Origin: Malacoraja senta
Taxonomy: Eukaryota
Reading direction: 5' to 3'
NCBI GenBank assembly: GCA_038087875.1
Contig: CM075989.1
Coordinates: forward strand, 25,050,001 to 25,110,000
Length of the DNA stretch: 60,000 nucleotides
Shown: positions 10,655 to 60,000 of the stretch, one piece after another
Layout: every line of letters begins with the position of its first letter
How positions within the stretch are numbered: the stretch's first letter is position 1
The notes under the pieces: generated by a model
What the model saw: only the letters and a program-made list of their open reading frames with translations
What the model was told of the DNA's origin: nothing
Database searches by the model: none
Position numbers and translations under genes: made by a program

Positions 10655-11384
10655 CTGGAAAACAAGAGAGCGTATTGCTTACGTCATGGTAGAGACACAA
10701 TGCTGGAGTAACTCAGCGGGACAGGCTTACGTCTGTCATCTCTCTAAAAGCAAGAGAGAGAACCTATTCTGTAGGTGCTGGATGGAATGGGAGTCACACT
10801 GGTTCACTTTCATACACGCAAGAGGCTATTCAGCCCAAGTCTATCCAGGTTCTCTGTGGTTTCCTATCAGTCCCATTCCCGTTATTTCCTTGGAATCTGT
10901 TCTCTCTCACAGAAGGACACAAAGTGCTGGAGTAACTCAGCGGTTCAGGCAGCATCTCTGGAGAACATAGATAAGTGTGATTTGGGCCAAGACCCTCCTT
11001 CCTTTAATGTATTAACCAACATCTGCAACTCTTTATTTATATTGGAGTGTGCGCCATTTACAGGATTCACTGCAGTTACACACCAAGGCTGAATCAGCAC
11101 CTCTCACACCCACATCCACAGCAACAACTAGACATAATCTCTGCCATCTCAAGGGATATGGGGAGAAAGCAGGAACAGGGTACTGATTTTGGATGATCAG
11201 CCATGATCATATCGAACGGCTGTGCTGACTCAAAGGGCCGAATGGCCTACTCCTGCACATACAGTATTTTCTATCTTTCTATCTCTGAGCCCCATCATTA
11301 TCTACTCCTTATGACCTCATTAGTTCATTTATTTCCACGAGGAACATCCTGTTTATGGCGAAGGTAGACACAAAATGCTGGAGT

Positions 11385-11415
11385 CTGAAGAAGGGTCTCG
11401 ACCCGAAACGTCACC
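11385..11415 (+). ncRNA. Minimal type I hammerhead ribozyme motif, intact core, within a 154-bp Penelope-derived insertion (11360-11513)
   Basis: CTGAAGA-A-GGGT(CTCG)ACCC-GAAAC-GTC-ACC; 16-bp TSD ACATCCTGTTTATGGC. Confidence 0.7.
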
Positions 11416-11568
11416 CATTCCTTCTCTCCAGAGATGCTGCCTGTCTTGCTGAGTTCCTTTGTGCACTTTGTGTCTAACTTCGTTTTAAACCAGCATCTGC
11501 AGTTCTTTCCTACACATCCTGTTTATGGCAATACACTCATGAGCAATATAATTTTCAGGACCAGTGTC

Positions 11569-11885
11569 GGCACCCAGTGGCGCAGCGGAAGAGTTGCTGC
11601 CTCACAGCGCCAGAGACCCAGGTTTGATCCTGATTACGGGTGCTGTCTGTGTGGTGTTTGCATGTTCTCCCCGGGACCACGTGGTTTTCCTCCGGGTGCT
11701 CCGGTTTCCTCCAACATCCCAAAGTCGTGTGGGTTTGTAAGTTAATTGGCCATTTGTAAATTGCCCCCTGGTGTGCAGGGAGAGGATGTGAAAGTGGGAT
11801 AACATAGAACTAGTGTAAACGGGTGATCGATGGTCAGCGTGGACTGGGTGGGCCGAAGGGCCTGTTTCCACTCTGTGTCTTTCAG
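11569..11885 (+). mobile_element. tRNA-derived V-SINE (HE1-like). Further copies at about 1-190, 3475-3735, 4060-4275, 7590-7890, 19420-19840, 30120-30395, 30880-31180, 42495-42750, 58995-59160
   Basis: A box TGGCGCAGCGG, B box GGTTTGATCC, V-domain GTTTGCATGTTCTCCCC...TCCGGTTTCCTCC, CR1-like 3' tail GGGCCGAAGGGCCTG. Confidence 0.85.
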
Positions 11886-11946
11886 TTCCCATAGGTTAAG
11901 GCAACACAGGAAGGATCGGATCGGATCGAACCTCAGTGAAACTCAC

Positions 11947-12794: not shown

Positions 12795-13229
12795 CTGTGG
12801 GTGTAAGCACACACAACAGTAAACACAGAGCTACAGACAAACACAGACACTTCGTCCTGCTGCAGCCAGAAGCACCTCACCCCTCCCCGTGACAGACCCT
12901 GTCTCCCACATTTGCAGCCTGTCCCCACTCAAGTATTTATTCAGCTTGCTTCTGATAGCTGCTCCAGGTGTCCTTTCCAGTCCCAGGCTGTGCCTGCCCA
13001 ATCAAGCCCAGCCTGACCCGCTGAATTACTCCAGCATTTTCTTCGGTTATAAACTAGTATCTGCAGTTCCTTCCCACGCAATCACCACCAAGCCTGCCTC
13101 CATCGTGTCCCCTCTGGACAGAGACTCATCTGCCAGAGAAAACAACATAGAAACATAGAAGGTACACAAAAATGCTGGAGAAACTCAGCGGGTGCAGCAG
13201 CATCTATGGAGCGAAGGAAATAGGCAACG

Positions 13230-15350
13230 TTTAAAGACTGCATGGATGAACTACAAAAATTGTTCATCCCAGTTTGGCAAAAGAATAAATCAAGGAAGGT
13301 AGTGCATCCGTGGATAACAAGGGAAATCAGGGATAGTATCAAAGCAAAAGATGATGCGTACAAATTAGCCAGAAAAAGCAGCATACCAGAGGACTGGGAG
13401 AAATTCAGAGACCAGCAGAGGAGGACAAAGGGCTTAATTAGGAAAGGGAAAATAGATTATGAAAGGAAACTGGCAGGGAACATAAAAACTGACTGCAAAA
13501 GTTTTTATAGATATGTGAAGAGAAAGAGATTAGTTAAATCAAATGTAGGTCCCTTGCAGTCAGAAACAGGTGAATTGATCATGGGGAACAAGGATATGGC
13601 AGACCAATTGAATAACTACTTTGGTTCCGTCTTCACTAAGGAAGACATAAATAATCTGCCGGAAATAGCAGGGGGCCGCGGGTCAAAGGAGATGGAGGAA
13701 CTGAGTGAAATCCAGGTTAGTCGGGAAGTGGTGTTGGGTAAATTGAATGGATTAAAGGCCGATAAATCACCAGGGCCAGATAGGCTGCATCCCAGAGTAC
13801 TTAAGGAAGTAGCTCCAGAAATAGTGGATGCATTAGTGATAATTTTTCAAAACTCTTTAGATTCTGGAGTAGTTCCTGAGGATTGGAGGGTAGCAAACGT
13901 AACCCCACTTTTTAAGAAGGGAGGGAGAGAGAAAACGGGGAATTACAGACCAGTTAGTCTAACATCGGTAGTGGGGAAACTGCTAGAGTCAGTTATTAAA
14001 GATGGGATAGCAGCACATTTGGAAAGTGGTGAAATCATTGGACAAAGTCAGCATGGATTTACGAAAGGTAAATCGTGTCTGACGAATCTTATAGAATTTT
14101 TCGAGGATGTAACTAGTAGAGTGGATAGGGGAGAACCAGTGGATGTGTTGTATCTGGACTTTCAGAAGGCTTTCGACAAGGTACCACATAAGAGATTAGG
14201 ATACAAACTTAAATCACACGGTATTGGGGGTTCAGTATTGATGTGGATAGAGAACTGGCTGGCAAACAGGAAGCAAAGAGTAGGAGTGAACGGGTCCTTT
14301 TCACAATGGCAGGCAGTGACTAGTGGGGTACCACAAGGCTCAGTGCTGGGACCCCAGCTATTTACAATTTATATTAATGATCTGGACGAGGGAATTGAAA
14401 GCAACATCTCCAAGTTTGCGGATGACACTAAGCTGGGGGGCAGTGTTAGCTGTGAGGAGGATGCTAGGAGACTGCAAGGTGACTTGGATAGGCTGGGTGA
14501 GTGGGCAAATGTTTGGCAGATGCAGTATAATGTGGATAAATGTGAGGTTATCCACTTTGGTAGCAAAAACGGGAAGGCAGACTATTATCTAAATGGTGGC
14601 CGATTAGGAAATGGGGAGATGCAGCGAGACCTGGGTGTCATGGTACACCAGTCATTGAAAGTAGGCATGCAGGTGCAGCAGGCAGTGAAGAAAGCGAATG
14701 GTATGTTGGCCTTCATAGCAAGAGGATTTGAGTATAGGAGCAGTGAGGTTCTACTGCAGTTGTACAGGGTCTTGGTGAGACCACACCTGGAGTATTGCGT
14801 ACAGTTTTGGTCTCCAAATCTGAGGAAGGACATTATAGCCATAGAGGGAGTGCAGAGAAGGTTCACCAGACTGATTCCTGGGATGTCAGGACTTTCATAT
14901 GAAGAAAGACTGGATAGACTTGGCTTATACTCGCTAGAATTTAGGAGATTGAGAGGGGATCTTATAGAAACGTACAAGATTCTTATGGGGTTGGACAGGC
15001 TAGATGCAGGAAGATTGTTCCCGATGTTGGGGAAGTCCAGGACAAGGGGTCACAGCTTAAGGATAAGGGGAAAATCCTTTAAGACCGAGATGAGGAAAAA
15101 CTTTTTCACACAGAGAGTGGTGAATCTCTGGAACTCTCTGCCACAGAGGGTAGTTGAGGCCAGTTCATTGGCTATATTTAAGAGGGAATTAGATGTGGCC
15201 CTTGTGGCTAAAGGGATCAGGGGGTATGGAGAGAAGGCAGGTACGGGATACTGAGTTGGATGATCAGCCATGATCGTATTGAATGGCGGTGCAGGCTCGA
15301 AGGGCCGAATGGCCTACTCCTGCACCTAATTTCTATGTATCTATGTATGA
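13230..15350 (+). mobile_element. Young 5'-truncated CR1 (HER1-like) LINE; uninterrupted 670-aa ORF2 remnant (13242-15254) with RT domain, 3' UTR and (TCTATGTA)n-type tail
   Basis: Motifs [39 protein letters not shown] and the CR1 C-terminus; no endonuclease domain. Confidence 0.95.
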
Positions 15351-16562
15351 AACCCTTCTTCAGACATAACATAGAAAATGGGTGCAGGAGTAGGCCATTC
15401 GGCCCTTCGAGCCTGCACCGCCATTCAATATGATCATGGCTGATCATCCAACTCAGTATCCTGTACCTGCCTTACTTGGAGCGTAGAACAAAGAGCTGCA
15501 CAGCACAGGAACAGATCCTTCAGCCCACTCTGTTTGTACCAAACATGATGCCAAGTTAAACTGATCTCATCTGTCTGCACATGATCCATGTGTGCCTGTC
15601 TAAAAGCCTCTTAAAGACCACTAACGTATCTGCCTCCACCACCACCCCTGGCAATGCGTTCCAGGCCCCCACCACCCTGTGCAAAATAACGATGCGCACA
15701 TCTCCATTAAACTTTCCCCTCTCACCGTATAGCTACGCCCTCTAGTATTTTGAATGAATGAATGAATGATATCTTTTATTTCGAACGATTAAAAAAAGAA
15801 AAGAAAAGATGAAAATAAATAATAAATAAAGGAAAATTATATATATACATATATATATATACATACACACATACATACATATACATGTACATATATACAT
15901 ACATACATATACACACATACACATATACATAACATATATGTACATACATAAATTAATAAATCAAAAGCCAATTTCAACATAATACACATTAGACTCGTTC
16001 GAAAAGGAGAATGGTATTGGACATCTCCACACTGGGAAAATGGTTCTGACTGTCTACCCTATCTGTGCCTCCCATCCTTTCACATACATCTTACTCCAGG
16101 AAAACCCTCCACAGTTATATATTATAAACACAATATTCAGACCACGACAGAATAACCCCGTCTCTCCATAATCCACTCTCCATATCCTTATGTCTTCTGT
16201 ACAAATACAGGAATTAGTAGACCACTCAGCCTTAAACCTACTCCACAATTTAATCAGATTACAATCAGATTGGTTCTGATTTTATTGTAATCACAACTCC
16301 ACATTCCTAACTACCAACATTGACCTGTCACTTCTTTGCTTATGAATTTATGAAAATATCCCAAAGATTCCAAAGACTCACGAGGTTCAGAAAAAATATT
16401 TTGCCTCATCTCTGTCTTAAAGGGGCAACCCCACATTTTGTACACAGCAATCTCTAGATTCTCCCACCAGAAACACCCTCCCTGCACCCACCCTGTCACA
16501 GCCCCAATCATTTGATGTGTTTCAATCAATTCCAACTCCCTCATTATTCTGAACTCCGGCAG

Positions 16563-17085: not shown

Positions 17086-17889
17086 ATGATCTTTCACCGT
17101 AAGACAACCTGCCTATTCCTGCTGTTGGACCAGGGAACCGTCCCACAGTGCTCCCCGTACACTGACCCACATATCACCGTTCCCACAGTGCTCCCTTGAT
17201 ACTGACCCCCCGCCAATGTTTCACGTTCCCTGACACTATAACACTATCACAATAACTCATCTCAGCCACTGGAACCAGGACAAGCGTCCAAACGCACGTG
17301 ACCAGAAATGAAGGCATTACTCGGGCGTACCCAGTAATTTTCATGGTTCAAGACAAATACTATTGATTTTCACTCTGCACTTGTTTGCACAAAGGTAGAG
17401 ATTGAACAGTCCTTCCAACCACCAGGCCTGAGAGAGCCTTGTCTGTCTTTTAGGAAAATCTTGAGCATTAATGCAGCCTCTCGGTTATAAAACCTGCTAA
17501 TAATCCCTGTATGAGGAAGTGATTGGAGATGTATCACTCCAACTTAATGCATATAGAGACACGGATAACACACACAGATCTGCCCCAGGCTACTGTGCCT
17601 GCATCCGACGTCCCCTACACCATTGGTCTAACAACCAAAGTGTCACTTCATGCATCTATGAACATCTCAGATCTTGTCAGAGTTGGATGCAGTGTTGCCA
17701 CGTACGTCTGGCAGCAGAGGTGTTTGCTGTAAGAAGTTTGCTTCTTGAAGCCACTGCCATGGATTGGGATTTTTTACCATTTGGATACAGAAAGAATTTG
17801 AGGAGGAGTTACATTTCCGATTTTAAAACTGTAACGTCTGAAATTAACAGGAGATTCCTAAGTAGTTCATCATAAGCAAGAAAATTCTA

Positions 17890-18360
17890 GAGACACAAGG
17901 AACTGCAGATGCTGGTTTACAAAAGTAGACACAATGTGCTGGAGTAACTCAGCGGGTCAGGCAGCATCTGTGGAGAACATGGATAGGTGACGTTTCGGGT
18001 GAGACTTCTTCAGACTGATTGTGATGGGGGTGGGGAAGAAAGCTGGAAGGGAAGAGGGGCAGGACTAAGCATGGCTAATGATAGGTGGATACAGGTGAGG
18101 GAGGTATTTAAATGGACAAAGTACAGAGATGAAAAGACAAAAGGTGTGAGATAAGGATAGAAGTGGGGTGAATGGTGGAGACAGGAAGGAATGTGGGTGG
18201 CAGGGGAGGAGGAGGGGAAGGGAGAAATATGTATGGGTGAGGCACAGGGCAGGGGGGAGGGAGGAGGGAGGAAAAACAGTGAGCTCTTTATAGGTTAGTT
18301 ACCTAAAATAGGAGAATTCCATGTTCATACTTTATGTTGTAAGCTACTCAAGCAGAAGAA
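17890..18360 (-). mobile_element. Penelope-like element 3' end: decayed GIY-YIG C-terminus, pyrimidine-rich UTR and pseudo-LTR with a damaged hammerhead motif
   Basis: Minus strand reads CLSSLQHKV*TWNSP, a decayed LGSLQP..MNIEFSNF-like end, and continues into the CTGAAGA...GAAACGTC repeat. Confidence 0.7.
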
Positions 18361-20159: not shown

Positions 20160-20313
20160 GTTTCGCTCGTTCTGCCAGAGCCGGCTGGGTCTCCCGGTTG
20201 CCAACCATTTCAACTCCCCTTCCCATTCCCACACTGACCTTCCTGTTCTGGGCCTCCTCCATTGCCAGAGTGAGTTCACACACAAACTGGAGGAACAACA
20301 CCTCATATTTCAC
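20160..20313 (+). mobile_element. Penelope-like GIY-YIG endonuclease fragment
   Basis: LPVANHFNSPSHSHTDLPVLGLLHCQSEFTHKLEEQHLIF from 20191; similar fragment at about 5370-5530 on the - strand (KLEEQHHVLCLGSLQP). Confidence 0.75.
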
Positions 20314-20538: not shown

Positions 20539-20953
20539 CCTCCTGGAAACAAGTCAACAACTAATCAAATACACATTTTTAAATTGTACACGATATCCTT
20601 ATGAGTTGAATTGAGTGAGTTTAGTTTATTCGGCCCATCAAGTCTACTTTGCCATTCAATCATGGCCGATCTATCTTTCCCTCTCAACCACATTCTCCTG
20701 CCTTCTCCCCATAACCTAACACCTTTACTAATCCAGAATCTACAGTATCTACCTCTGCCTTAATAATATCCATTGACTTGGCCTCCACATCCTACCACAT
20801 GTACCTAACCCTAACCCTAAAGCTTTTGTCACATGAAACCAAGCCTTATGTTTGTTTCAGACTCATCCACCAGTCTTCACTGATGACATCATAACACCCG
20901 GTCAGGAGAGAATCCCCCCTCCCCCCAACCCCCGCCCCCACCGGACTAGGACT

Positions 20954-21208
20954 AGGCAGCATCTGTGGAGAACATGGATAGGTGACGTTTCACAGAGTGC
21001 TGGAGTAACTCAGCGGGTCAGGCAGCATCTGTGGAGAACATGGATAGGTGACGTTTCACAGAGTGCTGGAGTAACTCAGCGGGTCAGGCAGCATCTGTGG
21101 AGAACATGGATAGGTGACGTTTCACAGAGTGCTGGAGTAACTCAGCGGGTCAGGCAGCATCTGTGGAGAACATGGATTGGTGATGTTTCACAGAGTGCTG
21201 GAGTAACT
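20954..21208. repeat. 66-bp tandem array (about 3.9 units) of a Penelope pseudo-LTR segment
   Basis: GGCAGCATCTGTGGAG recurs at 20955, 21021, 21087 and 21153. Confidence 0.95.
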
Positions 21209-21693
21209 AAGAAGGAGAATGGTGGGATATGGACATATACAGGCAGATGAGATCTGTTAAACTTGTCATCGTGTTCAGCAGGAACGTTGTAGGCCAAGGA
21301 ACCGCTCACATGTACTGATCTATGTTCCATGTTCTAAAATGCTGTAAATACTCAGCAAGCCAGTCAGCGTCTGACCAGAAGTGTTCACTTTGTTTCTCTT
21401 TCCACAGATGCTGTGGTGAATAGCACTGAATGAAAACACTTCCAGAATGGTAAAGCACTAAATAAAATACTTTCTTGTGCTCATGACATTCAAATTGCAA
21501 GCTCCGCGACAGGACAATAGGCCCATGTATTAGTCACTGGGTAACGATCACAACTTATTATTAATAACCTGCCAGAATTGCCCTGGGCCGGCTTCTATTA
21601 AACTGATATGGGAATATTTTATACCAGACCACACCTCACATTAAACAATTATGCAACATTCTCTGAAAGGCATTTTGTAAAGACAGAGTTATA

Positions 21694-23292: not shown

Positions 23293-24000
23293 ACACAGCA
23301 CCTGAAGTGAGGGTCAAAGGTGCTGTGAGGCGGCAGTTCTACCTGCTGTGCCACGTCTGCCCACACTGGTTTGGAAATTTATATTGCTCATGAGAGTACT
23401 GCCATAATCAATGGGTGTTCCTTGTGACAGTGCCGCTCTGTGACACCCACCCCAGCAGGTGGGGCCCACAGCAGGCAAGGGGCTCGGTCCCAGCAGGCAG
23501 GGGGCCCTCTGTAGCCATCATTACTTGGAACATTTACTAACAATGGGAAGATCTCAGAGGAAGTCCAGTTTGATAAAGTGCTGCGGAATACTGAGGCAGA
23601 CATGGACTAGCTGCTTTGAGTTGCAGGTATGGAGACCTGGGGACAAGCTGCCACGATGTGTTGGTACAACAGAGCTCAAGTCCTGACTCTTACAAAAGGA
23701 GGATGGACAAAAAGATCTGCTGATGCTGCAAACGTGAGCAAAACTCAAAGTGCTGGAGGAAGTCAGCTGGTCAGGCAGCATCGGGGTCGGGATCTTTCTT
23801 CAGTGATAGGGGGTGAGACAAAGCCTGGCAAGTGATAGGTGGATATAGGTGAAGGGAGTTTAAGTGACAGATGGATGGAGTAAGTGACAAATGTTTGAGG
23901 TGAAGGAGAGATGCACATATATGTGGTAAAAAACTGAACAGATGGAGATTTACAGTAAGCAATGCTTAGGGAAGTCTAAGATATAATATCAGGAATATTA

Positions 24001-28025: not shown

Positions 28026-31000
28026 AATAGGACCCCCACAATTCACAAAGAAGTCAAGAGAGTTTTATTGTCATGTGTCCCAGATAGGACAATGAAATTC
28101 TTGCTTGCTACAGCACAACGGAATATGTAAACATAATACAAAACGGAAGATAAAAGTTCAGTGTGTCTATAGAGCATATATACACAATAAATAAGTATCA
28201 GGAACATTTGCAATTGTACCAGCATTACTCAATGTGCATAAATGTTGCAAAAGCAGGCTGGTAGACGACAAATCTGGGACACACCCATGGTTCAGACTGG
28301 ATTAACAGGCATTTCGCGAAGTGAAGGAACAGGGGGAGGTGTCGTAACAAAGTCAGGAACAACAGCCAGACTTTATGAAAGGTTCTTTGGAGGTGTGGGG
28401 ATGGGAGAATGTGAGGAATTCCAGGAGGCAAGGGCATCTTGAATCAGGCCAACAGTGATGGGACGGGGGAGGGGGTGGGACACAAAGTGGCCAGGCTAGT
28501 AAGGCCAGATATCTGCAACAGAAGGCTGGGGAGGCAAAGTCAATGGATATATTTAAGGCAGAGATAGATAGATCCTTGATTAGTCCGGGTGTCAGAGGTT
28601 ATGGGGAGAAGGCAGGAGAATGGGGTTAGCAGGGAGAGATAGATCAGCCATGATTGAATGGTGGAGAGACTTGATGGCTCAAATGGCCTAATTCTGCTCC
28701 TATTACACAGGATTAGTGAGGTACAGGTACAATGAAAATCATGTTTGCAGCAGCATCACAGGCATGTAGACTCAATAAACTCTCAAAAACATACATAAGG
28801 TACACACCAATTGGTACAGGGTTTGGAGTACAAGGGGTCATTGTTGAGGTTTGTTGGGAAGGCCAGTTATATACACGGGTAATGTTGCAGCTTCCATTCA
28901 CTACTGTTGTACTCAATAACAATGAATCTCCAGCTAATGCCACTCACATCCTGTGCGTCTCTGAGGGTCAACTCTAAAGAACTCCAAGTCTGGAAGATGT
29001 TGGTGAGCCATAAACACACCAGAGTTCCCCGACTTCTAATTCACTCTGGCTCACCGACTGACCTCTTTCTTGTGCATGTCACAAATGTTTGCTGCTGACT
29101 TTATCCAAACAAACAGTAGCCTGACCTTGACTTTGCCTGACCTTCATGAAACAATCTGAGATCGGCCCGTTCCAGTCCCTTCCAGAGGCTCTATCTTTGT
29201 TCTACAATCTCATTCCATACTGTACTGTTGTTGCAAGACAGCTGTTCTCTTCACAAAAAAAAAGACAAATGGAAAATCAAGGCTAACAAGTGTATAAATT
29301 GTTTCTCCTGCGTCATGCTGAATCAGACCTGCGTTTGACAGAAGTTGGCAGCCAAAATGCAAGACCCCACAAACACCAGTTACATTAATTACCAGGCATA
29401 CCTTTAGAATGGAAATAAGGAATTTCTTGAGCTAGAGGGTGGTGAATCTGTGGGATTCATTGCCACAGACAGCAGTGGAGGCCAAGTCATTGGGTGTTTT
29501 TAAATCAGAGTTCCAGGCATTCCTGGTGTGTGTGAGTGGGGGGGGGATGAAAGTATCCAGATTAGTCTCTATGAAATAGAATAGTTGTAACCAGGAAAGT
29601 ACCAACGTGGAGGCAGACCGACAGAGACACAAGGAAATGCAGATGCTGGTTACAAAACAACACATACTGCAGTTGGTCAGTCTGAAGAAGGGTCCCGACC
29701 CCAAACATCACCCATCCATTATCTTCTAACGTTGGCTTGCTGAGTTACTCCAGCACTGTGTGTTTTTTTAACATGAAGGCAGATGTCCACAATGTGGTTG
29801 ATGTAAATGAGAAGGAAGAATAAATAGAATTAAGAGGAAGAAATGAGTTTATAAGTTGAGAAAAGTCTAATCTACCAGGGCAGTCTTGCTTAGTGTGATA
29901 ATATTGAACAATATAGTTAGAAGCAAATAATGGGAACCATGACCAAACCATACAAGTGAGCAGAAACTGTGGATACACACAAAATGCTGGAGTAACCCAG
30001 CAGGACAGGCAGCATCTCTGGAGAAGGAATGGGTGACGTTTCAGGTCAAGGCCATTCAACAAAAACCATGACCAGTTCTAATCAGCAAGAGAAATGTGAA
30101 TCAATGGGTACCAAAGTTGTACAGCATGGAAACCGGCTCTTCGGCCCATCAAGTCTACCGTCACCTACTTGTTTGCGCTAATCCTACATTCATCTTATTT
30201 TTATTCTCTCTAATTTCTCATCAATATTTCACCCCTCACCTACACACTAGAGGAATTTAACCTACCCACCAATGTGATACTCCTGGGGAAAACCCAGTTA
30301 CAGGGGGATCGTCCAGAGACAGCACCTCAGTCATGATCAAACCCGGCCTCTGGAACCAAGGCTGCTGCTCTACTAGCTGCACCACTGTGCCGCCCACTGA
30401 GCAAACATATTAATAACCTTGATAAAATGTTAACCCTTCGGCATTAGTGGCTGCTGGACAAAGAGGTGGAATTTGTTTTTGAGCACTGCCGATTTCTGGT
30501 AACAACCCATCTAGAGTCTGCAGATACAAAGCACCAGATGTAGGAATCTGGAATAAACAGCAGGATTGTGGAGGAACTCAGTGGGTCGAGCAGCATCTGT
30601 GAAAGGCATGTCTTTTATTCCTTCCACCCTCTCCCTTCTTAACCTCCCCTGGCTGCTGTTCAACCCGCTGAGTTGCTCCAGCGTTTGTTTTGTGCCTCAT
30701 CTATTTTGTTCCGTTCTGGGCAACACAAGACAGGAGGAATAATAGTGATTGAGTAAGGACACGTACAAGTTGATGTTTATACCAGACCGTTCAGAGAAGC
30801 ACATTACTCCAGAAACATTGTGAACGTGGGCACAGGTTCTTAATGGATGGAACAGGAGAAAAAGTGAGAGAGGGGGAGAGCACAGTGGTGCAGCGGGTAG
30901 AGTGGCTGCCTCACAGCGCCAGAGACCTGTGTACAAATATAACTTTGGGTGCTGTCTGCCTGGAGTTTGCACATTCTCCCTGTGACCACGTGGGTTTCCT

Positions 31001-31599: not shown

Positions 31600-32520
31600 T
31601 CAAAGGGCCGAATGGTCTCCTGCCGTTCCCATGGGAAACAGAGACCCCTGGCACGGAGAGCGTGTGGTGTGGGGGGCCAGGGGGAGAGCTTGGTGCCCGA
31701 CGTCATCTCCCCAACTGCCCAGACTGGACAACACACGGTGGGTGACCTGAGGTCCGGGGAAGTGGACTGGCCACGCAGTCAGTGCCCGGAGCTTGCTCTC
31801 TGGACAGGGGGAGGGCTCGCCTTGTGTCCCCAGCCCGGGACTGACCATTGCCCAAAACTGCTGCTCACTGCCTGGCCCGGGACGGGATGGGGGAGAGCAA
31901 AGGGGGGGGGGGAGAGAGTGAGGATGGGGGAAGAGAGAGTGGGGGAGAGAGTGAGGATGGGGAGAGAGGGAGGGGGAGAATGAGAGGGGGGAGAGAGGGT
32001 GAGGCAGGCAAGCTGGCGAGGCAGCGCCGCGTTTCCCGCTCCCTCCGCGACTGGTTCGGCGGGTTCGCCGCATTCCTGGCTGCGGAATCCGCAGTTGTCT
32101 CCACGCTGGGGGGGGTGGAGACGGCGTTGAAACCCAAGGTCCGGAGGAGACCCGGTCCCCAAACCGCAGCCCAACACCCGCCGGGGACCCGCTGTACCTG
32201 GGACCTGGTCTGAAGAAGGGTTTCGGCCCGAAAGGTTGCCTATTTCCTTCGCTCCATAGATGCTGCTGCACCCGCTGAGTTTCTCCAGCATTTTTGTGTA
32301 CCTTGTACCTGGGACCCCGCTCTGTTGCCCCACTCACTCACTACCCGGGGCCGTGAACCCGCCGACATTCCGGCCCCCAGCCAGCCGGCGCTGGCGTTTT
32401 ACACACTTGGATCAAATTTGAGTGCGGACGATACAAACAAATATTGGTCTCACCTTCTCTAGCGCTGTGATTGCGGGACTACGCTGCTCCACACGTGTCC
32501 AGCGCACACACACACACACC
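31600..32520 (-). promoter_or_regulatory. CpG-rich region; candidate promoter / non-coding first exon of the ceramide synthase (possible donor AAG|GTGAGA, exon ending 32454)
   Basis: CpG-dense, mostly non-repeat sequence upstream of the ATG exon. That exon has an acceptor, so an upstream exon must exist. The assignment is inference. Confidence 0.45.
32206..32303 (+). mobile_element. 98-bp Penelope-derived hammerhead mini-element inserted in the CpG-rich region
   Basis: 13-bp TSD TGTACCTGGGACC; stem II variant GGGT(TTCG)GCCC; GAAAG-GTT in place of GAAAC-GTC. Confidence 0.75.
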
Positions 32521-32625
32521 CAGCTCACACACTAGCTCCAGTACCTCCCCCAGCGTGGACCTCTGCAGATAGACATACAATGCTGGAGTAACTCAGCGGG
32601 ACAGGCAGCATCTCTGGAGAGAAAA

Positions 32626-32667
32626 TATGGGTGACGTTTCGGGTCGAGACCCTTCTTCAGACTCACA
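32626..32667 (-). ncRNA. Minimal hammerhead ribozyme motif, intact core, with 6/7-bp helix I
   Basis: Minus strand TGTGAGT-CTGAAGA-AGGGTCTCGACCC-GAAAC-GTC-ACCCATA. Confidence 0.7.
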
Positions 32668-35498: not shown

Positions 35499-35688
35499 TT
35501 AAGAAAGAACTGCAGATGCTGTTAAAATCAAAGGTAGACAAAAATGCTGGAGAAACTCAGCAGGTGAGGCAGCATCTATGGAACAAATTAATAGGTGACG
35601 TTTCGGGTCTCGACCCAAAACGTTACCTATTCCTTCATTCCATAGATGCTGCCTCACCCGCTGAGTTTCTCCAGCATTTTTGTCTACC
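35499..35688. mobile_element. Palindromic (head-to-head) Penelope pseudo-LTR insertion
   Basis: About 160-bp imperfect hairpin centred near 35610; 14-bp TSD TTCAGAATGCTTGT. Confidence 0.75.
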
Positions 35689-35900
35689 TTCAGAATGCTT
35701 GTGGAGCCCTCCACCATGAAGATAACTATGCTATTTCCTTGTTCGCCATTCTTCATTTTCTGGTTTAACACTTAGCAATCCTCTTCCTTTGTATTTACCT
35801 ATGGAGTACTCCTTGCCAGTTTATCCTCCTTCCGAGTCCTACCTAGATTGTTAGTGGCTATATGGAGCATAGAAACAGAATCATCTCCTATCCTAGAAGT

Positions 35901-35931
35901 CTGATGAAGGGTCTCAACCCGAAACGTCACC
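35901..35931 (+). ncRNA. Minimal hammerhead ribozyme motif with canonical CUGAUGA core, within an 87-bp insertion (35899-35985)
   Basis: CTGATGA-A-GGGT(CTCA)ACCC-GAAAC-GTC-ACC; 13-bp TSD TCCTATCCTAGAA. Confidence 0.72.
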
Positions 35932-37031
35932 TCGTCCTTTTCTCGAGATGCTGCCTGACCCGTTGAGTTACTTCAGCATTTTGTGTCCTATCCTAGAATA
36001 CTTGTTCTTACCCCTGTCAATACAGACTTCATAACCCTATCTTTGTTGTAGAGGAGTGGCTGTTCACCCAAATATGCGCTTTCCTTATGATTACTACATT
36101 TCTAATCTCCTCTTACTGGAACCGTATTGTTTAGTTTGCAGGTCCTGCCTGAGTCGAGGAAATACTTTTTCACCCAGAGAGTTGTGAGTCTGTGGAATTC
36201 TCTGCCTCAGAAGGTGGTGGAGGCCAATTCTCTGGACGCTTTCAAGAGAAAGTTAGATAGAGCTCTTGAAGATAGCGGAGTCAGGGGATACGGGGAGAAG
36301 GCAGGAATGGGGTACTGAATGTGGATGATCAGCCATGATCACAGTGAATGGCGGTGCTGGCTTGAAGGGCCGAATGGCCTACTCCTGCACCTATTGTCTA
36401 TTGTTCCTGATTGCTGATCAAATTTAAGGTGATTAATCTAAGGGAAGGGGCTGCCTCTCAGAATACAGCACACAGGTAACACCCATCACTGATACGGACA
36501 GTGTCTGAGCTCATTAACATGGGCTGAAGTTCCTTGTGCAGCCAATGCCTGCTGTAGGTATGGTCACTATGAACCATAAAGTCTCCATCAGCTCCTACTT
36601 GAAGCCGTTACAACACATCACCTGCCCAGCCATCTCATTCTATTTAATTAATTGGTTGGGATTTAATTATTTTGAACATTCACTTCTTAGTTGTACGTCT
36701 AAACCAAACAGAGGAGTTGGGAGAAATAACCAACACTCACCTTTCTGCTGTGCTGTGACGCCACACTTTGGCACAGAAGACAGGAACAAGTTGTGGCAGA
36801 GCCTCTTCCTTCTCTCAGTCTCCACTGTCTGTCTCCTGCTCCTTTTAAACTCTCTAATCTTCTCTTCTTGCTCTTTTTAAACTCTCTGTGACTCTTCTTC
36901 CCAACTCTTTTAATCTCCAATTCTAAAATGAAAAAATCTATTGTAAAAATAATTCATTTGCAGTTAATTAGATTTAAAGAGAGCATTAGATTAAGAGGAA
37001 TTTATAATCTGCACAAGATCAGGACAATGAA

Positions 37032-44491: not shown

Positions 44492-45956
44492 CTAGGAGAT
44501 TGAAAACATTTCAGAGACTATAGTGAAGACCGTGCATTGCCACTGTGTACAGTCAGCATGCACACAGCAGATGTTGGAAGGGGGGAGACACACCAACATT
44601 GAGATACAAATACAGACATGGAGTTGAACAATCCATGGAGCAGTAAATGGAAAATACAAAGGGAAAATGGGGTAATGATTAAGGGGATTTTGGGTTTCTG
44701 ACTAGCTGCTCAGATATTCAGGGTCTCCAGAGAAAAAGGTCCTTTTCTGGGATAAAAATAATTTGCTGGAGGAACTCAATGGCCAAGTAACACCTGTGGA
44801 GGTAAAGGGATGATTAACGTTTCGGATTGAGAACCTATATCACGATCTGATGGAGAGGCTCGACTCATTAACTTCCTTCAACAACATGTGTTTTGCTCCA
44901 TATTCCAGCTTCTGCACCTCCTGTTGGTCTCCACTGCTCTGAGCTGCCAGTTCTCTATTTGGTCATTATTTCTTTGCAATACTTACCAATAGTAAAGTAA
45001 TAAAACTACTTCAACGTGATAAGGATCTTTTTACGCACAAGATTAACTCACAATTACAAAAACAATGGAATTGCTGCTATAAATTAAATTTAGAAACTTG
45101 TTGTTCTGATCTGATTTTAATGTTTCCACAATCCCTATACTAACACTTTAATAGTAGGCTTTCATTCATCCATTTTCTCTTTTAGAATCAAAAGCCATCA
45201 TTTTTCAATTCAGTGAAAAACCCCATTAAACTGGAGGAGTAGGCCATTGTCCTTTGAGCCTGTTCTATCATTCAACACACTCATACCTGTTCATCCATAT
45301 CAGTAGTATCTGCACTTGCTTGCGTCTCCTCTCCTCTCCACACCTTCCACCCTCCCCCTCCATCCACCCTCACCATCCTCCCTCCCTTTCCCCCCTCATC
45401 CCTTGGAATCCACGGAACTGTCACGTGGGAGCATCCTCACCAAAGATGCTGCCTGTCCCGCTGAGTTACTCCAGCTTTTTGTGCCTATCCTCACCAGAAG
45501 GACGACTGTGGTTCTACATGACTCGTCATCACCTTCTCAAGGACAACGAGGATTGCTGACATCCTACAAATAAATAAAAATGATCTACAATGGAATATAA
45601 AGTACTGTGGCACAAGAGACTGCAGATGCTAGAATCATGAGCAAAAAATCAAACTACCAGGAGTCTGAAGAAGGGTCTCGACCCAAAACGTCGTCTTTTT
45701 CCTTCGCTCCATAGATGCTACCTCACCCACTGAGTTTCTCCAGCATTTTTGTCTACAGAGGATCTCAGCAGGTCAGGCAGCATCTGTCAGAATTGTCTGT
45801 CTGAAAGAGGACCTCAAGGTGAAACGTCATCTGACTAATCCCTTCACAGATGCTGCCTGACCTGCTGAATTCCTACGGCAGCTGGTTTTGTTTGGTAAAC
45901 ATAACACATGTAATTTACTGGGTTGATTTTGGGTATTGCCACAAGGATTTACTAAC

Positions 45957-46098: not shown

Positions 46099-46725
46099 CT
46101 AAAAGTATTACAAATGAATCATATTGTTAATATTTACCAGCATAATAAACCTAAACCTAAACAGCATGGTGGACACATACTCAGGCTGCATTGTTGCACC
46201 GTGCCTACTTAATTTAAGATAGCGAAAGATGGGCCTGCCTATGTTGCCATGTAATGTTCCATTCTGATGGACCTTGCTGCTCCACCTAGCCCTACATTAA
46301 AAAACCTCCTGCTGTAACATCCCTTACACCACAAATCCACCAGACAATGGTCTGTCATCTAGTCTGTGGTGTAATATCCCTTAGGGTCGAGACCACTTCT
46401 TCAGTTCAACAAAACACTCGGAAACTATACATAGAAACTGAAGTCAGCATTTCAGATCATAAATTATTAAAGTAATGACAATATAATACATAATATTTAA
46501 AAGTAGTGTTCAGTCTGAAACGTTGCCTATTCTTTCGCTCCATAGATGCTGCCTTAACCGCTGAGTTTCTCCAACATTTTTTGTCTACCTTCAATTTTTC
46601 CAGCATCTGCAGTTCTTTCTTAATCATGTATATCAAGGTGTTGTGCAATTCAAGCAGAGCAACACCACATCAACCATGTCTTATAGCAAAATGCTCCTGT
46701 CATTATAAACTCTGTTTGTACTCAC

Positions 46726-46815: not shown

Positions 46816-47431
46816 CTAGGGAAAGAATATATCAGGTATCATTTAGATTATTCCAAGAATGCAATAATAAAAAAATGTGCAAATCTATAGAATAATTCAC
46901 TTTCTACATTATTTTGACACTTTTTCTGTTTTCATTCTTGATTAATTCTTAATTCATAGCTTAATTAATTTTCAACGGAATTATCTTTTCATTTAAAATC
47001 TCTCATGCTTCTATGATCCTTAACTGGGCCCAATCTTGCAAGGATTTAGATTGATGATTGTAAATAAAATAAACGGAGCAGCTTTTTAATAAAGGACAAA
47101 CTTCCGGCATATGATAGTGAAGAGAGACACAAAAAGCGGGACAGGCAACATCTCTGGAGAGAAGGAATGGGTGACGTTTTTGAGTCGAGACCCTTCTTCA
47201 GGTTCACAAAACACTCAGAAACTATACATAGAAACTGGTCAGCATTTGAGATCATAAATTATTCAAGTAGTTACAATATAATACATAATATTTAAAAGTA
47301 CTGTATTCAGCTCTGGCCTCCATACTACAAGGAGAAAGTGCAGGAAGATTTATAAGCAGAATTGAGATGGTGTAGCTATCTACAAAGACTGAACAGCCTG
47401 TCACCCTTAAGAAAAGGTATCAAGGTATCAA

Positions 47432-50630: not shown

Positions 50631-53600
50631 TCAGCATTGTTGGTCCAAGACAGTCTTCAGCCTCAGAATTTAGAGAAGTAAAGGACTCTCAGTGTGTGTG
50701 TCCAGACATCTCTGAAGGTGACAGTGCAAGTGGATAAGGTAATGATGATGGCATATGGAATACTTGCCCTCATTAGTTGGGCTATCGAATATACAACTTT
50801 ACAAAACATTAATTAACCACTGCTGAAGCATTGTGTGCAGTTCTGGTCACCAAGCAGGAAAGATGTAAGTAGCCACGAGAATTTGCATGAAGTTGACCAC
50901 CGTGTTCCCAGGTATAGACCGTTTAATTTGCCAGGATAGTGCGGTTAGGTTGGGTTGGTTTGGAACAGATGAAGCTGAATGGGGTCCGGATGTAAAGAAA
51001 ACCATGAGGGACATAAATCGGATAGGTAGTAAGAAACCTTTCCCCATAGCAGTCGTGTCTCAAACCAGAGGGCACAGGTGTAAGAGGAGAGCAGGAGATT
51101 TACAGAGGATCCGAGGAGGTTTTATTTCACCTAGATGGTGGTTGAAATCTGGAACGTACTGCCCGATTGTGTGGTGGAGGCAGAGACATTTAAGTATCTA
51201 GGTAAGTTCTTGATTTGACAAAGCATGGAAGGCTATGGACCAAATGCTGGTGCATGGGATGATTGTAAACGGCTGCTCGATGGTCTGCATTGATATGGTG
51301 GGTGAAGGGCTTGCTTCTGCCCTGCATGACTCTGTCAGGCCTATATATGACTCCAGCAAAACACAGTGCCTCTGCAGGTCAGATACCATCTGGGGAGAGA
51401 ATGAACAAGCGACATTGCGGGTCGGGTCCATTCTACAGACTGGTCAGGCCCCATCAGTCTGAAAATGAGTCTCGACCCACAACACCGCACGTCTATTTAT
51501 TTCCCAGCTACTGTCTGACCCGCTGCGTTCCTCCACCATTGTGTTTTGCACAAGATTCCAACTCCTGTAGTTTCTTATCTCTATATGATTAGTTCGGTTA
51601 GTGTTGTTGACATAGCTGCCTTTCCAGTTCGAGGGTAGTTTAAGATGGACCATAAATAGTGAAAAGTAAATAAATCTAAATAATTTTAAATTTCCTTGTT
51701 TAATAAATATATATTGGCCTTGAGGTTTAAATGCTGAAAATGTCCAGAAGCCTGCACTCTATTAAGAGGAAATAATTTCAGATTTTATTTACCAAATGAA
51801 AATATAATTTCTGATTTACCTGTTAATTAGCTTAGTTTAAAATTGATGATATCCCTTCATTCTGGTTAATCCACCAGTGCATTTAATTTATTTATTCGTT
51901 TCAAGTTTTTCTAAAGTCTTAAACTCAGTCATGCCTTAATGCTCTATTTTTGAAAGAATACAAACTAAATATATGCAGCCATTCCTCGTATTTTAAACCG
52001 TGGTTCCAGTGTTCACTGGCACTGCATTCACTTCAAGGCATGAACTATATTTTCAGATGCATTTTTGATTTTACATAGAAACATAGAAAATAGGTGCAGG
52101 AGGATGCCATTCAGCCCTTCGAACCAACACCACCATTCATTGTGATCATGGCTGATCGTCCCCAGTCAATAAACCGTGCATGCCTTCTCCCCATAATCCA
52201 CTAGCCCCTAGAGCTCTATCTAACTCTCTCTTAAATCCATCCAGTGATTTGGCCTCCACTGCCCTCTGTGGCAGGGAATTCCACAAATTCACAACTCTGG
52301 GTGAAAAAGTTTTTTCTCACCCCAGTCTTAAATTGCCTCCCCTTTATTCTAAGACTGTGGCCCCTGGTTCTGGACTTGCCCAACATTGGGGACATTTTTC
52401 CTGCATCTAGCTTGTCCAGTCATTTTATAATGTTATATGTTTCTATAAGATCCCCCTCATCCTTCTAAACTCCAGTGAATACACCTTGTGTGTGCTTTTT
52501 ATGCAATTACATTTTTGACCAAAAATAGTTTATGTAATTTTTGACACAGCTAGAATATGAAGAGTAGCAGAGCAGTAGGAAATTGAATCATAGGATGTTT
52601 ATGATAACTCTTTGAAAAAAATCTTTATTACAGTTCTTTACCTAAAACCTCATGATTTTTCCATTTGAAGTTTTCTCTTCATGAGTTATTTTTGAATAAG
52701 GAAGGAAATGTACTAGTTAAGGCATGCCAATTGGATTTGTAAAGGACAAATTGATTTTACCCAATTTGATAATGTTATTTGATGAGGTAACAGAGTTGAC
52801 GAGGATAATGTAGTTGATGTGGTGTTCGTAGACTTCCAGAAGGCTTTTGATAAGATGCTGCACAACAGCCTCCTTCACAAAGTCTGAAGAAGGGTCTCGA
52901 CCCAAAACGTCACCAGTACTCCAGCATTTTGTGTCTATCTTCAGGCTCCTTCAGAACATTGCAGCATGTGGCATAAAAGGGATATTGATAACACGGATGT
53001 GAAGTTGGCTAAGTAACAGTCAACAGAATGGTTGTCTTTCTGCTTTGGAGCAAGCTGAATAGTCACCTTTCCAGGGATCAGTTATAGCCAATTTAAATAA
53101 ATAATAATAACTTGGATATGGGACCGCTAGCTCCAATTTTTTAATTTGCAGAAGATACAATGGAGCAGTACGGTGAAACAAAAGGCAAACTACTGAAGGA
53201 GCAGGTCAAACAGCATCTGCGATGAAATGATGGTGATGCAGGGTCTTCAACTGAAATTTCAACCTTCTCTTTACCTCCTCAGATGCTGCTTGATCTAGAG
53301 TTAGCAGTTAGTTTTTTTTGCTACAGATTCCAGTATCTGAAGTCTGGAAGTAATTTGAGCTCTTCGTAAAGTCCAGTATCCCATATGCCTTTTTAGACAG
53401 CTTTGCCTACTTAGCATACTGCCTAGGTTTAGGTTTATTATTATCGTACCGAGGTGCAGTGAAAAGCTTTGTTCAACTTAAAATCTCAGATCTCTCTTTC
53501 TGAACATTCAAGTTATGTCATTTATTTCTTATTTCCTATTTTAATTCCCTGCGTAATACAGTATTTGATATTTCTGTGAAATGTCTGTATACTGCACACT

Positions 53601-56536: not shown

Positions 56537-56747
56537 ATGTTCCATCACCACTGTAGAAGAAATCCAGAACTGCAGCAAGAACTGCAAATCCAAAATGCTG
56601 TGGCAGCTGGCGATGTTCATACAGTGCGCAAGATGTTGGAGCAAGGCTATTCTCCTAATGGTCGAGATGCTAACGGATGGACACTACTGCACTTCTCTGC
56701 AGCCAGAGGCAAGGAACGTTGTGTTCGAGTTTTCTTAGAGCACGGAG
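56537..56747 (+). CDS. ASB7: Ankyrin repeat and SOCS box protein 7, first coding exon; gene continues beyond the window
   Basis: MFHHHCRRNPELQQELQIQNAVAAGDVHTVRKMLEQGYSPNGRDANGWTLLHFSAARGKERCVRVFLEHG is nearly identical to the mammalian ASB7 N-terminus; G|GTAAGT donor. Confidence 0.96.
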
Positions 56748-59700
56748 GTAAGTGAAAGAAGCACATGAACCCTGTTATATCAAGGAACTGCAGTTGCTGG
56801 TTTATGCCAAAGAGTATTCTAAAAAATGCACTGTATGACAAAAAGTTTATCCCAAAGAATTGTTTTTGTTTTGGTATTTGAAATTATTATCATGTTGTGT
56901 TGGCAATGTTTTTGAAGCAACCTTACAATTTACTTTAGGGATTGTATTGAATGATATGGAAGTATGGGGATTTGAAGTCTTATTAAAAAAATATAGCAAA
57001 CTTCCTCAATTTATAAAGGTACTATTAATCAATTCTTGCGTAGTGCCATTTAATCATTGCGTAAGTGGTGTCAATTCATGCGTCTTTTTTTGCTATAACA
57101 GTGCATTACTCTCCACTCAAGAATACACTGTACCAAAAATCTCCTATGAACTTCACCCAGCTTTTTCAATTTTGAAAAATGTTGTTAATAAATCAATCTC
57201 CCAGGAATGTATCCCTTTTGTTAATCGTGGGTATTTGTAGGTAACATGGGTGATTTTATACTACATTATAATTGTATCATTAGTCTAACTGGTAGTTATT
57301 ATACACCTTCTCAAGCAGTCAATTTGATTTGGTGCCAAAGCAAACATCTCTTGTCATGCCTGGATTTTTTTCAGTTCTGTGCGGTCTGTGGACTATATGG
57401 TAGCAAAATACTTGCTTTGGTGTGACAATATGTGAATGATGCAATGTAAGGCCTTAGAATGGAGTGGAATAGTACAAGAGTATTGTTGCTAAATTGTTTG
57501 GCCAGTATCTGAGTTGCAGTTGTGTGTTCAATGTCGCCAATGCAGCTGGGAAATTTAAATTCAAGTAACTAAATAGGCATTGTTTAAAAAAAAAAAAAGC
57601 TAATCTCCGTATCAGTAAATGAGATATAACTAGAGTGTTGAAACATATCTCTGGTTCAGCAATGTGCTGCATGACAGAAATATGCTGCCCTTGTGCAACT
57701 CTGTCCTGCATGAGACTCAGGTCAGCGGAGCGCTGTTCAGTTCAGGGAGATCGGTTGACAATGAACTTTGCATGTGCCATTGATACTCATCCTATGAATG
57801 GATAAGATGTTGAGAGGCAGCTTACAAATTGGATGAGAAAGATGGAAATTGAATTTCCTTCCCAGATATTTAGAGTGGGAAGTAAAATTCTCTTATTGAG
57901 TATCCATCAAATATGGTAGGTGGTTGATTTGGGAAGCCTTGTGCTTAGTGTAGAGTGTGCAGATTTGATTGTTATACAATGGAGTATTCAAGATCATCCG
58001 CAACCCTTTACCTCTGAGGTTTGAGGTTCCCATCTGCTTCAAAAGGGCATCTCTGATATCAGTGCCCAAGAAGAGCACAGTTACTGAATCCACGACTGTA
58101 AGTACTTGCATCCACCGTAATGAAATGCCTTGAGAGGTCGGCCATGCCGCTAATCAACTCCTGCCTCAGAAATGACCTGGACTGCTTCAACGTGCCTATC
58201 ACCACAACCGCTGATGTTATCTCACTGGCTTTTCTCCACTCTGCTCTAGACCAACTGGATATCAGGGATACACACGTCCATCAACCATAGCTCAGTGTTC
58301 AACACTATCATCCCCTCCATGCTTTGACACCTGGGCCTCTGTAGCTTTCTTTGCAGCTGGGTTATTGACTTCCTCATCTCAATCCTCAATCAGTGTGGAC
58401 TGGTAACAACATCCTCTCCACAATGGCCATTTATGCAGGTGCACCTTAGGATCGTATGCTTAGCCCTTTGCTCAACTCTCTTTAAACCCTTGGCTATGTG
58501 ACCAAGCACTGCTCCAATGGCATCTATAAATTCACTGAGGATACTTAGAGGACTTTGCATGTACAAAGTTATGAGGGCATGGCAGAGGTGTCCAAGACCT
58601 GAGGGCATTGGGTTTAAGCATAGGAACGAGACATTTCGAGATCTGAGCAAGAATGTTTTCCTACCCAGAAGATGGTTGCAATGTGGAACATTGCTCATGA
58701 AGGTGGTTGAGGTAGATACCCTCACAGTGTTTAAACCAAGATGAGTCATGATATAAAAGGCCAAGGACCAAGTGCTAGTAAATGGGATTAATATAATTAG
58801 ATCTTGTTGGCTGGCATACACATGGTGGGCTGAAGGGTTTGCTTCTGTGAGACCCTGTGCTCTTTCTAATGCTTGTGGAGTTCCCCTTTTAAATAACAAA
58901 TCAAATATAGTTCACCACCTGACAGTGTTACAAGTCTTCACTTGTTTAGGTATAAAAAAATAAAATCTCATGCCAACTTTTGTTTTTGATTGAAAGATAC
59001 ACCATGGAAATAGGCTCCTACCAAGTCCATGCTGATCAATCAGCCATTCACATCAGTTTTATGTTATCCCACATTCATATCCACTCCCTGTACACTAGAG
59101 GGGAATTTACAGAGGCCAATTAGCTTACAAACCTGCATCACTTTGGAATGTGGGAGGAAATAATAAGAATTAAGAATTTAATAAGAATTTAAATCTTAAC
59201 ATGTATTTGGTGACCAGTCTTGTCCAGAAAGATGGATCCTGTGAGGAAATGGGTGGCACTCTACGTTGATGGAGACTGCCACGATTGCACTCATCAGCCA
59301 AGCAGCTGTGCAGCTGCAAGGAGAGATGCTCAACCTCTATAGAAGTGGGGAGCATGATTAGTCTTCTCACATGATGTTGTTGCCTTCATCAGCTTGGGGC
59401 ACCCTGCAGTGCACTTTAAGGAGATGTGGAGACCTTGCTGTGACTGCTACATGCTGCACAGTGTGACAGGCCAAGGTCTGCAGCTGGTCCAGAGCAAGCA
59501 AAGCAAAGACAGAAGCACGCCAACCAAGAGCGAGATAGTTAGAAGGAAGAAGACTGGCAGGGAAATATCCCTCCTTGGCATCCACTGTCTCATCTCACAG
59601 CTGACTGTATAAGGGGAGCATTGTTAGCACTTAGGAGATGGTGAACTATTCCAGCAGAAAGATGCATATCCTCAGGAGCTGTGAAATCATAATCACCACT

Positions 59701-60000
59701 GTAATCCATGGCATTGCAATCTCTACCAAGTGCACAATACTTCAGCAGTGAGATGGGAAATACCGACTATGCATAAAAAATGTTTCCCACCCTGTTTTTC
59801 AGATCCTTGTGCAATGATTATAGCACATGATTGAAATGCAGCTCTGATTACTTAAACTTTCAGATGTACAGTGGTGGTCTGAAGAAGGGTCTCGACCCGA
59901 AACGGCACCTGTTCCTTTTCTCCAGAGATGCTGCCTGACCCGCTGAGTTACTCCAGCACTCTGTCTATCTGTGGGCAGATTACTTTGGGATACATTGTGT

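Follow-up and report, generated by a model that had tools for sequence, protein, structure and literature searches.

The tiny hammerhead-bearing repeats scattered through the genome of Malacoraja senta are probably run-off cDNAs of one end of a Penelope-like element (PLE), primed at tail sites that sit 95-135 nt in from the 5' terminus of its RNA. The hammerhead-plus-tail repeat is the end of a PLE with intact 4.0-kb copies in the genome that code for reverse transcriptase (RT) and GIY-YIG domains, and the tiny copies share fixed ends, starting 0-6 nt before CUGA, ending at two tail sites near +93 and +130, and carrying target-site duplications (TSDs) of about 14 bp. Throughout, +1 is the C of CUGA, and the predicted cut lies between +28 and +29.

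Distribution of the repeat

The window is a 60,000-nt stretch of contig CM075989.1 (assembly GCA_038087875.1, positions 25,050,001 to 25,110,000). A 25-nt motif matched it 9 times at up to 2 mismatches, compared with 0 in 100 shuffles, and 12 times at up to 3 mismatches, while BLAST recovered 44 head or tail pieces (0 in a Markov-shuffled control). The window contains the following features.

1212..1289, plus: decayed hammerhead head and short tail (motif search, BLAST)
1338..1697, minus: junction array of 66-bp units within an old copy, split by an unrelated insert of about 240 bp (1393-1635)
8079..8261, mixed: head-to-head pair with short-tail arm (minus) and long-tail arm (plus)
8349..8532, mixed: older head-to-head pair, short tail and long tail
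11360..11515, plus: intact core (11385-11412) and long tail; ahead of them an inverted short-tail arm of 25 bp; TSD of 16 bp
13152..15362, minus: single copy split in stem II by a CR1-like fragment of about 2.1 kb
17889..18328, minus: 5'-truncated PLE that keeps the final ten ORF codons, the 3' UTR, a hammerhead with a stem II deletion, and a long tail
20954..21221, minus: tandem array of 66-bp units (GAAAC-GUC half plus tail, lacking CUGANGA and stem II)
23741..23805, minus: decayed copy
29623..29763, mixed: inverted long-tail arm and edge-starting short-tail copy
32206..32304, plus: young short copy, start -2, short tail, 13-bp TSD
32563..32663, minus: short copy, start -3, core intact
35498..35691, mixed: fold-back pair joined within stem II, long and short tail, 14-bp TSD
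35899..35985, plus: short copy, start -2/-3, core intact, 13-bp TSD
45611..45756, plus: edge-starting short copy with G12 mutated, and remnant inverted long-tail arm
46376..46621, mixed: decayed minus-strand head (near 46384) and plus-strand long-tail piece (46517-46621)
47135..47201, minus: edge-starting copy with part of the tail deleted
51370..51546, mixed: old head-to-head pair
52881..52943, plus: edge-starting copy with internal deletion and imperfect TSD
59876..59974, plus: edge-starting short copy with U16.1 mutated

An earlier note on this DNA had proposed a high-copy family with at least 15 copies here. The family is real and its copy number is high, with 28,778 exact copies of the hammerhead motif genome-wide, 335 pieces per 660 kb (about one per 2 kb of genome), and several hundred thousand decayed pieces by extrapolation, but the count in the window reaches 15 only when decayed and partial pieces are included. 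CUGANGA, stem II and GAAACGUC are all intact in only three window copies (11385, 32660 on the minus strand, and 35901); the copy at 1680 is partial, beginning at +9, those at 23785, 46384 and 51459 are heavily decayed, and the matches at 13225 and 15350 are halves of the one interrupted copy. The TSDs proposed earlier were borne out at 16, 13 (with 2 extra nt), 14 and 13 bp, as was the imperfect one at 52881. A link to a GIY-YIG end at 17890-18360, in the copy at 17990, is also real, but covers only the last ten ORF codons (18299-18328, minus).

The parent element

Of 20 loci chosen for long frames, 12 hold complete ORFs, 13 in all, which run to 1212-1290 aa and contain RT and GIY-YIG motifs. 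The ORF, which has a length of about 1240 aa and an N-terminal insert rich in repeats, matches the Pfam families RVT_1 (E 6.6e-6) and GIY-YIG (E 0.0015), each below its curated cut-off, and has 1589 relatives with the same two domains. All 10 intact copies compared are 99.1-99.8% identical, and the parent PLE is recently active. A 1318-aa frame at L081 was rejected as a parent, being a chance L1-PLE fusion. A Cx4Cx2C linker and a DKG motif are seen in the ORF, and from the linker motif alone it would be a likely member of the Neptune clade.

In having a single repeat-linked ORF with a PLE-type RT and, after it, a C-terminal GIY-YIG, the element resembles canonical EN+ PLEs, as it does in its partial-tandem pLTRs, 5' truncation, TSDs, a tail of 30-40 bp at one end and an adjacent inverted 5' copy, so far as the sections available of two accounts describe them (Schostak et al. 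2008, PMC2377424; Craig et al. 2021, PMC8557442). Truncation in those accounts is variable, whereas here it is bimodal, with a pile-up at one edge and a dispersed remainder. Every subfamily traced includes long members joined to the GIY-YIG end. The linked RT/GIY-YIG ORF thus upholds the earlier proposal of Penelope origin and mobilization by a PLE enzyme.

The hammerhead core

The repeat carries CUGANGA, a bulge, stem II, GAAA, a palindromic helix III and NUH, with a cut triplet of GUC in older subfamilies and GUU in the youngest, in agreement with the minimal hammerhead proposed before. Such hammerheads of metazoan PLEs, and their scattered truncated copies, have been published (Cervera and De la Pena 2014, PMC4209133), and in the parts available of that paper they share with ours a type I core without loop 3, a palindromic helix III, location in the pLTR, an unpaired base before stem II and a short helix I. 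As here, most motifs there lie dispersed as single copies and are "probably related to truncated PLEs", and fish, coelacanth and Xenopus have thousands per genome. The present family differs in its stem II of 4-5 bp, a helix I of 2 bp (2-3 bp had been claimed) and roughly 29,000 exact copies, and its fixed 5' edge has no mention in those parts. An Rfam scan at E up to 1 gave 14 weak matches, with no hammerhead family among them.

Two earlier expectations failed in 113 copies from 660 kb. Stem II had been said to vary while keeping its pairing; of 452 stem II cells no more than 4 carry two-sided changes, and the variation, which is not covariation, consists of CpG decay and a single subfamily change on one side (U-A to U-G). 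Excess conservation of the core was likewise absent: G12 is mutated in 27 copies and G16.2 in 28, and core and tail decay at the same pace, i.e. copies decay neutrally. The core is common to subfamilies with differing flanks, which points to selection that would act only in source elements. A hammerhead-like dimer scores about -9 kcal/mol, while the best dimer fold reaches -20 to -25, and two primary papers on the PLE minimal hammerhead, in the portions available, report its activity as low, with no in vivo evidence and no reads terminating at the cut site.

Ends of the tiny copies

In 660 kb, 118 of 287 pieces have 5' ends at -8..+3, while ends beyond -10 occur at 0.06-0.7 per nt. The cut site was rejected as the usual 5' end, +26..+30 holding only 6 of the 287. 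In the youngest subfamily 3,628 of 6,589 exact copies have the 11 nt upstream; of 52 copies read (30 in order and 22 chosen for lacking the 11-nt upstream match), 32 start at 0..-6, none at -7..-45 and 20 further up. TSDs of 9-21 bp (median 14) flank 59 of 73 short young copies, and this count, together with TSDs at 15 of 68 against a mean of 0.5 in shuffled flanks, led us to reject the edge as an artefact of missing subfamily references. The commonest boundary is -2 (972 copies), ahead of -3 (581) and -4 (428). The same edge is present in contigs of three other organisms. In 8 of 20 loci there is a joint between -4..+7 and an ORF-start end that varies in position (+212..+593, twice with an A run), and at L388 the ORF-start end +284 is joined to the edge twice.

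Tail ends are paired in the inverted copies. Head-to-head pairs carry one long and one short tail in 66 of 77 cases overall, in a census that may count some loci twice (L301 and L302 look like a duplicated locus), and in all 30 of the classifiable pairs with a TSD.

These ends can be set beside the Anolis element PAc, whose protein in vitro nicks and extends both target strands, with RT starting inside the RNA at two tail sites and requiring ORF-start sequence downstream of them (Frangieh et al. 2024, PMC11167929). The two internal priming sites match our tail, and we count the extension of both strands and the use of uncleaved RNA as main template as further likenesses. The systems differ in ORF start (163 nt after CUGA here, within stem II in PAc), in that our genomic pairs suggest one priming site per strand, and in that some arrays here start exactly at the cut site, as PAc reads did not.

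The element RNA would physically begin at about -4 to -2, most likely at a capped Pol II start on the initiator-like TCAGT, and the PLE enzyme would prime at one of the two tail sites and run off the RNA 5' end, each tail site probably priming one nicked strand to give head-to-head pairs. The ribozyme would not set the ends of the tiny copies, which are likely dead on arrival because they break off at the priming site and miss the ORF-start sequence that lies downstream. For copies longer than one unit we envisage a second template, one that does not end at the first hammerhead: either RNA cut at two hammerheads and joined, or tandem read-through.

Alternative explanations

Some observations sit awkwardly with run-off from a capped start. 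A second group of 5' joints at -28..-53 counts against it, and an mRNA that began at the edge in two-unit tandems should have left some full-length copies with their end at that point, yet none of the 21 hammerheads followed by a long ORF start begins there; on that same count we rejected a roadblock to passing RT at the hammerhead. In favour of a capped start, G is in excess just before the edge in counts made by eye (39/100, p 0.01; 45/100, p 0.0014; 35 G vs 24 A, p 0.011), but not significantly so in older copies (9/21, p 0.09), and so modest an excess can arise by untemplated addition without a cap. The copies may instead be by-products of the autonomous element whose edge reflects a processed RNA end or a cDNA event: a hammerhead, folded or bound by protein, may stop a 5' exonuclease, the end may be related to a splice acceptor, or the cDNA may fold back at the TCAG-T-CTGA palindrome. 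The favoured boundary, -2, coincides with the opening base of helix I, the palindrome is the pivot of several pairs, and a long stem, weak in older subfamilies, is predicted in the young one to pair about -2..+10 with the long-tail end. The edge bases also read as a 3' splice site, their pyrimidine tract and CAG kept in all subfamilies, and as a small palindrome aiding fold-back, and in Drosophila virilis an intron ends at helix I, according to the available part of PMC4209133. We nevertheless regard this reading as unlikely, since only 38 of the 118 edge copies are inverted, the G excess fits a cap, and splicing was rejected as source of the edge, there being no upstream exon common to the short copies and no GT..AG ends in the 15 joints listed (of 34).

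The earlier note had favoured a non-autonomous, retrozyme-like system, and a self-propagating family of retrozyme or SINE type, with its own transcription, processing and re-copying by the PLE enzyme, would suit the very high copy number, the fixed ends, the tail hairpin kept upstream of the priming sites, the tandem derivatives, and a short-copy share far higher in older subfamilies than in the youngest, of which secondary amplification of short copies could be the source. It seems to us quite improbable, given that the ends fall off the cut site, copies are mostly single, the core decays neutrally, GIY-YIG-linked members occur in all subfamilies traced, young short copies match the intact element (95 of 98 nt at 32208-32305 in the window are identical to its end), and the Anolis PLE needs ORF sequence past its priming sites. 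Non-LTR retrozymes are likewise PLE-derived with a type I hammerhead in the available parts of their descriptions (Cervera and De la Pena 2020, PMC7229834; Li et al. 2026, bioRxiv 10.64898/2026.07.22.740005). The window's tiny copies are not cut-to-cut units; they are single or in inverted pairs, with 5' ends at 0..-6 and 3' ends at the tail sites, and the 66-bp arrays lack the catalytic half.

Cut-site arrays and tandem derivatives

Alongside the tiny copies, three young arrays begin exactly at +29 and are possible fossils of in vivo cleavage. In the youngest subfamily +29 is mildly favoured, by a rough 3-4-fold: 159 matches have a non-T before +29, and the core is missing in 18 of 20 A/G-preceded loci, compared with a +27 control of 128 matches, mostly G-to-T mutants, in which 17 of 18 keep core sequence. 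Helix I microhomology is used by 3 of the +29 joints. Arrays of 384 bp (x13) and 275 bp (x11) outside the window fit the tandem definition of retrozymes, in which every unit carries a whole hammerhead. The 66-bp derivative, present in the window and missing from the earlier list of copies, is separate and patchily spread, with 14,149 junctions.

Implications

Apart from subscription journals, Repbase/Dfam and supplements, the literature searched held no prior description of the edge, the +29 arrays or the family. New here are the junctions of RNA 3' ends to the edge, the three +29 arrays, the long/short-tail inverted pairs and the 66-bp tandem derivative. More tentatively, the genome may be a fossil record of two PLE RNAs, a capped edge-start RNA as the source of the tiny copies and a second RNA, cut by the ribozyme so as to begin at +29, as that of the +29 arrays and seamless longer-than-unit copies, with the 66-bp arrays as a parasite. 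If true, this would give the first in vivo indication that the minimal hammerhead of a PLE is active in cleavage, and that fertile copies are made by this cutting, and the parasite would keep only the substrate half of a dimeric ribozyme, cut in trans, its units added, telomerase-like, into older copies.

In conclusion, the repeat is best explained as the waste of one element family, not as a new ribozyme system. With a young intact element and thousands of clean insertions, RNA ends become readable from DNA, and the element gives exact constructs for transcription start, cleavage, circle formation and two-site priming. The family is of a known kind, and offers useful mechanistic leads that bear on the role of the minimal hammerhead in Penelope elements.

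Origin of the tiny copies

The hammerhead motif occurs nine times in the window at ≤2 mismatches and not once in 100 shuffles, and the exact 28-nt motif has 28,778 copies across the 1.94-Gb genome. The window contains 44 head or tail pieces, 660 kb of the genome 335 and a shuffled control 0, and an Rfam scan of the window returned no hammerhead model matching the motif. The target-site duplications (TSDs) that the earlier note listed for window copies were confirmed, as was its proposed Penelope link: longer copies continue upstream into GIY-YIG and reverse transcriptase (RT) coding sequence, and window copy 32208-32305 is identical at 95/98 positions to the end of an intact element. A search with an N-terminal piece returned many long frames, and 12 of the 20 such loci examined hold 13 full ORFs (1212-1290 aa) with DKG, YIDD, a Cx4Cx2C linker and GIY-YIG. 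These ORFs sit in 4.0-kb units, some of them tandem, with a hammerhead 120 bp after each ORF, and the intact units are 99.1-99.8% identical to one another; ORF-linked members are present in older subfamilies too. The linker motif suggests membership of the Neptune clade (PMC8557442). In the youngest subfamily (L134 2030-5743) the cut site is GUU, not GUC, and the N-terminal half of the ORF carries a variable repeat-rich insert.

The window's tiny copies are truncated ends of an endonuclease-bearing Penelope-like element (PLE) with a minimal hammerhead, and fall outside the non-LTR retrozymes, contrary to the retrozyme-like system first envisaged. This matches the picture given in PMC4209133, where minimal hammerheads lie in the pLTRs and scattered single motifs derive from truncated elements. 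Every core base is retained in only three window copies. The stem II variation once read as pairing-preserving reflects CpG decay instead, plus one one-sided change that marks a subfamily; because both-sided changes are so few (≤4/452 cells) and core G12 is so often mutated (27/113 copies), selection does not act on the inserted copies.

The 5' and 3' ends of tiny copies

Counting from the C of CUGA as +1, the 3' ends fall at two sites ~35 nt apart, with 36/52 copies of the youngest subfamily ending at +86..+96 (short tail) and 12/52 at +128..+132 (long tail). This is the known PLE tail, and it matches two internal priming sites seen in vitro for PAc, an Anolis PLE (PMC11167929). The 5' ends cluster at the hammerhead edge: 118/287 pieces begin at -8..+3, while starts elsewhere fall below 1 per nt beyond -10, with 6/287 at +26..+30. 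Among 52 copies read in the youngest subfamily, 32 begin at 0..-6 and none at -7..-45; its commonest start is -2 (972, vs 581 at -3 and 428 at -4), and 11 nt upstream are retained in 3,628/6,589 copies. Since TSDs of 9-21 bp surround 59/73 short young copies, the edge is a genuine insertion boundary. Loose ends at the same position occur in contigs of three other organisms.

Three results point to the edge as a physical RNA end. In 8/20 loci a variable ORF-start end is joined to -4..+7, two of these with an A run, and L388 has two joints, both from +284; an enzyme that ran off the RNA 5' end and then jumped to the 3' end of that short molecule would be expected to leave such joints. A modest G excess precedes the edge at three positions (p 0.01, 0.0014 and 0.011), and is not significant in old copies. 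The alternative that a passing enzyme stalls at the edge is ruled out, since, of 21 hammerheads with a long ORF start behind them, none has its beginning there. TCAGT at the edge is initiator-like; the same bases can also be taken for a splice acceptor and form a small palindrome. Drosophila Penelope is reported to have a promoter inside its pLTR (PMC2377424). We think it reasonably likely that the tiny copies arise by internal priming, as in PAc, and that the enzyme runs off the RNA at a fixed end.

Head-to-head pairs combine one long and one short tail in 30/30 classifiable TSD-bearing cases and in 66/77 overall (a few loci may be duplicates). PLE insertions tailed at just one end are known (PMC8557442). 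This strict pairing suggests that the two nicked strands are each primed at a different tail site.

The 66-bp tandem derivative and other rearrangements

A 66-bp unit begins at GAAAC and ends at the short tail; it has neither CUGANGA nor stem II, and the catalytic half of the hammerhead is missing.

Window 20954-21221, minus strand: tandem array of the 66-bp unit
Window 1338-1697, minus strand: array of the 66-bp unit

Its junction has 14,149 exact occurrences genome-wide, spread patchily (5 in the window, 28 in the adjoining 200 kb, none across spaced stretches totalling 400 kb); the unit is regionally clustered and also lies at G000:C1:2.7-3.4 Mb. Across 38 arrays, inner units differ by 0.7/66 bases and first units by 2.1, and most are flanked by pieces of old, decayed copies, from which we infer that young units entered old copies. 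These arrays could have arisen by homology-primed reverse transcription, with a circle or a multimer as template, or by ectopic gene conversion.

Other features of the window are:

13233-15345: CR1-like RT fragment dividing one hammerhead copy
20190-20309: lone GIY-YIG piece
~20805-20825: a few telomere-like hexamers
48615-48814: 200-N assembly gap

A GC-rich element, ~240 bp long and bounded by short terminal inverted repeats (window 1393-1635, L046 near 5300, L045), lies at one and the same TTA site in the tails of several copies. At L081 2122-6075 (plus strand), a truncated PLE lies in frame inside a young L1 ORF2, giving a chimeric open frame of 1318 aa that combines AP endonuclease, two parts of RT and GIY-YIG; in L098 a PLE lies close to a member of that L1 family. 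L082-L088 (contigs C4647, C2090, C48, C1573, C9, C4) are tandem 5.4-6.1-kb units, each combining a PLE piece with a CR1-like one. L416 and L417 (G000:C6:71.12 and 71.67 Mb) share a scrambled 62-bp tandem derivative, each locus having its own 3' tail and flanks, a hint that a short rearranged copy was re-mobilised.

Possible ribozyme cleavage

The ends of the tiny copies are not determined by the ribozyme. Single copies from +29, the first base past the predicted cut, are only ~3-4x commoner than those from +27, and edge starts are tens of times more frequent than +29 starts. Young arrays with units from +29 are found at three loci:

L350 1370-2907: young array, units from +29
L378 545-1205: young array, units from +29
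L396 201-545: young array, units from +29

Among 19 distinct junctions, from loci selected only for spanning tail and ORF start, two belong to arrays starting exactly at +29, one of eleven 138-bp units joined bluntly to +166 and one of four 165-bp units whose joint is ambiguous by 1 nt. The third, from a search targeted at +29, has five 61-62-bp units, all from +29 with a variable extra base; the short tail site and the cut site share 4-5 nt of homology, which may have aided its formation. Five further single-locus tandem arrays (L268, L376, L377, L391, L395; 254-384 bp, up to 13 units) have units with an internal deletion and an intact hammerhead, and four of them are joined at -34..-51.

Seamless longer-than-unit copies would fit RNA cut at two hammerheads and then joined, as proposed in PMC4209133; tandem read-through is compatible too. 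Fold prediction places the hammerhead-like dimer far from the best fold. In vivo cleavage is therefore no more than hinted at. Together with the end-to-end joints and the 66-bp arrays, the +29 arrays bring ribozyme function within reach of a test.
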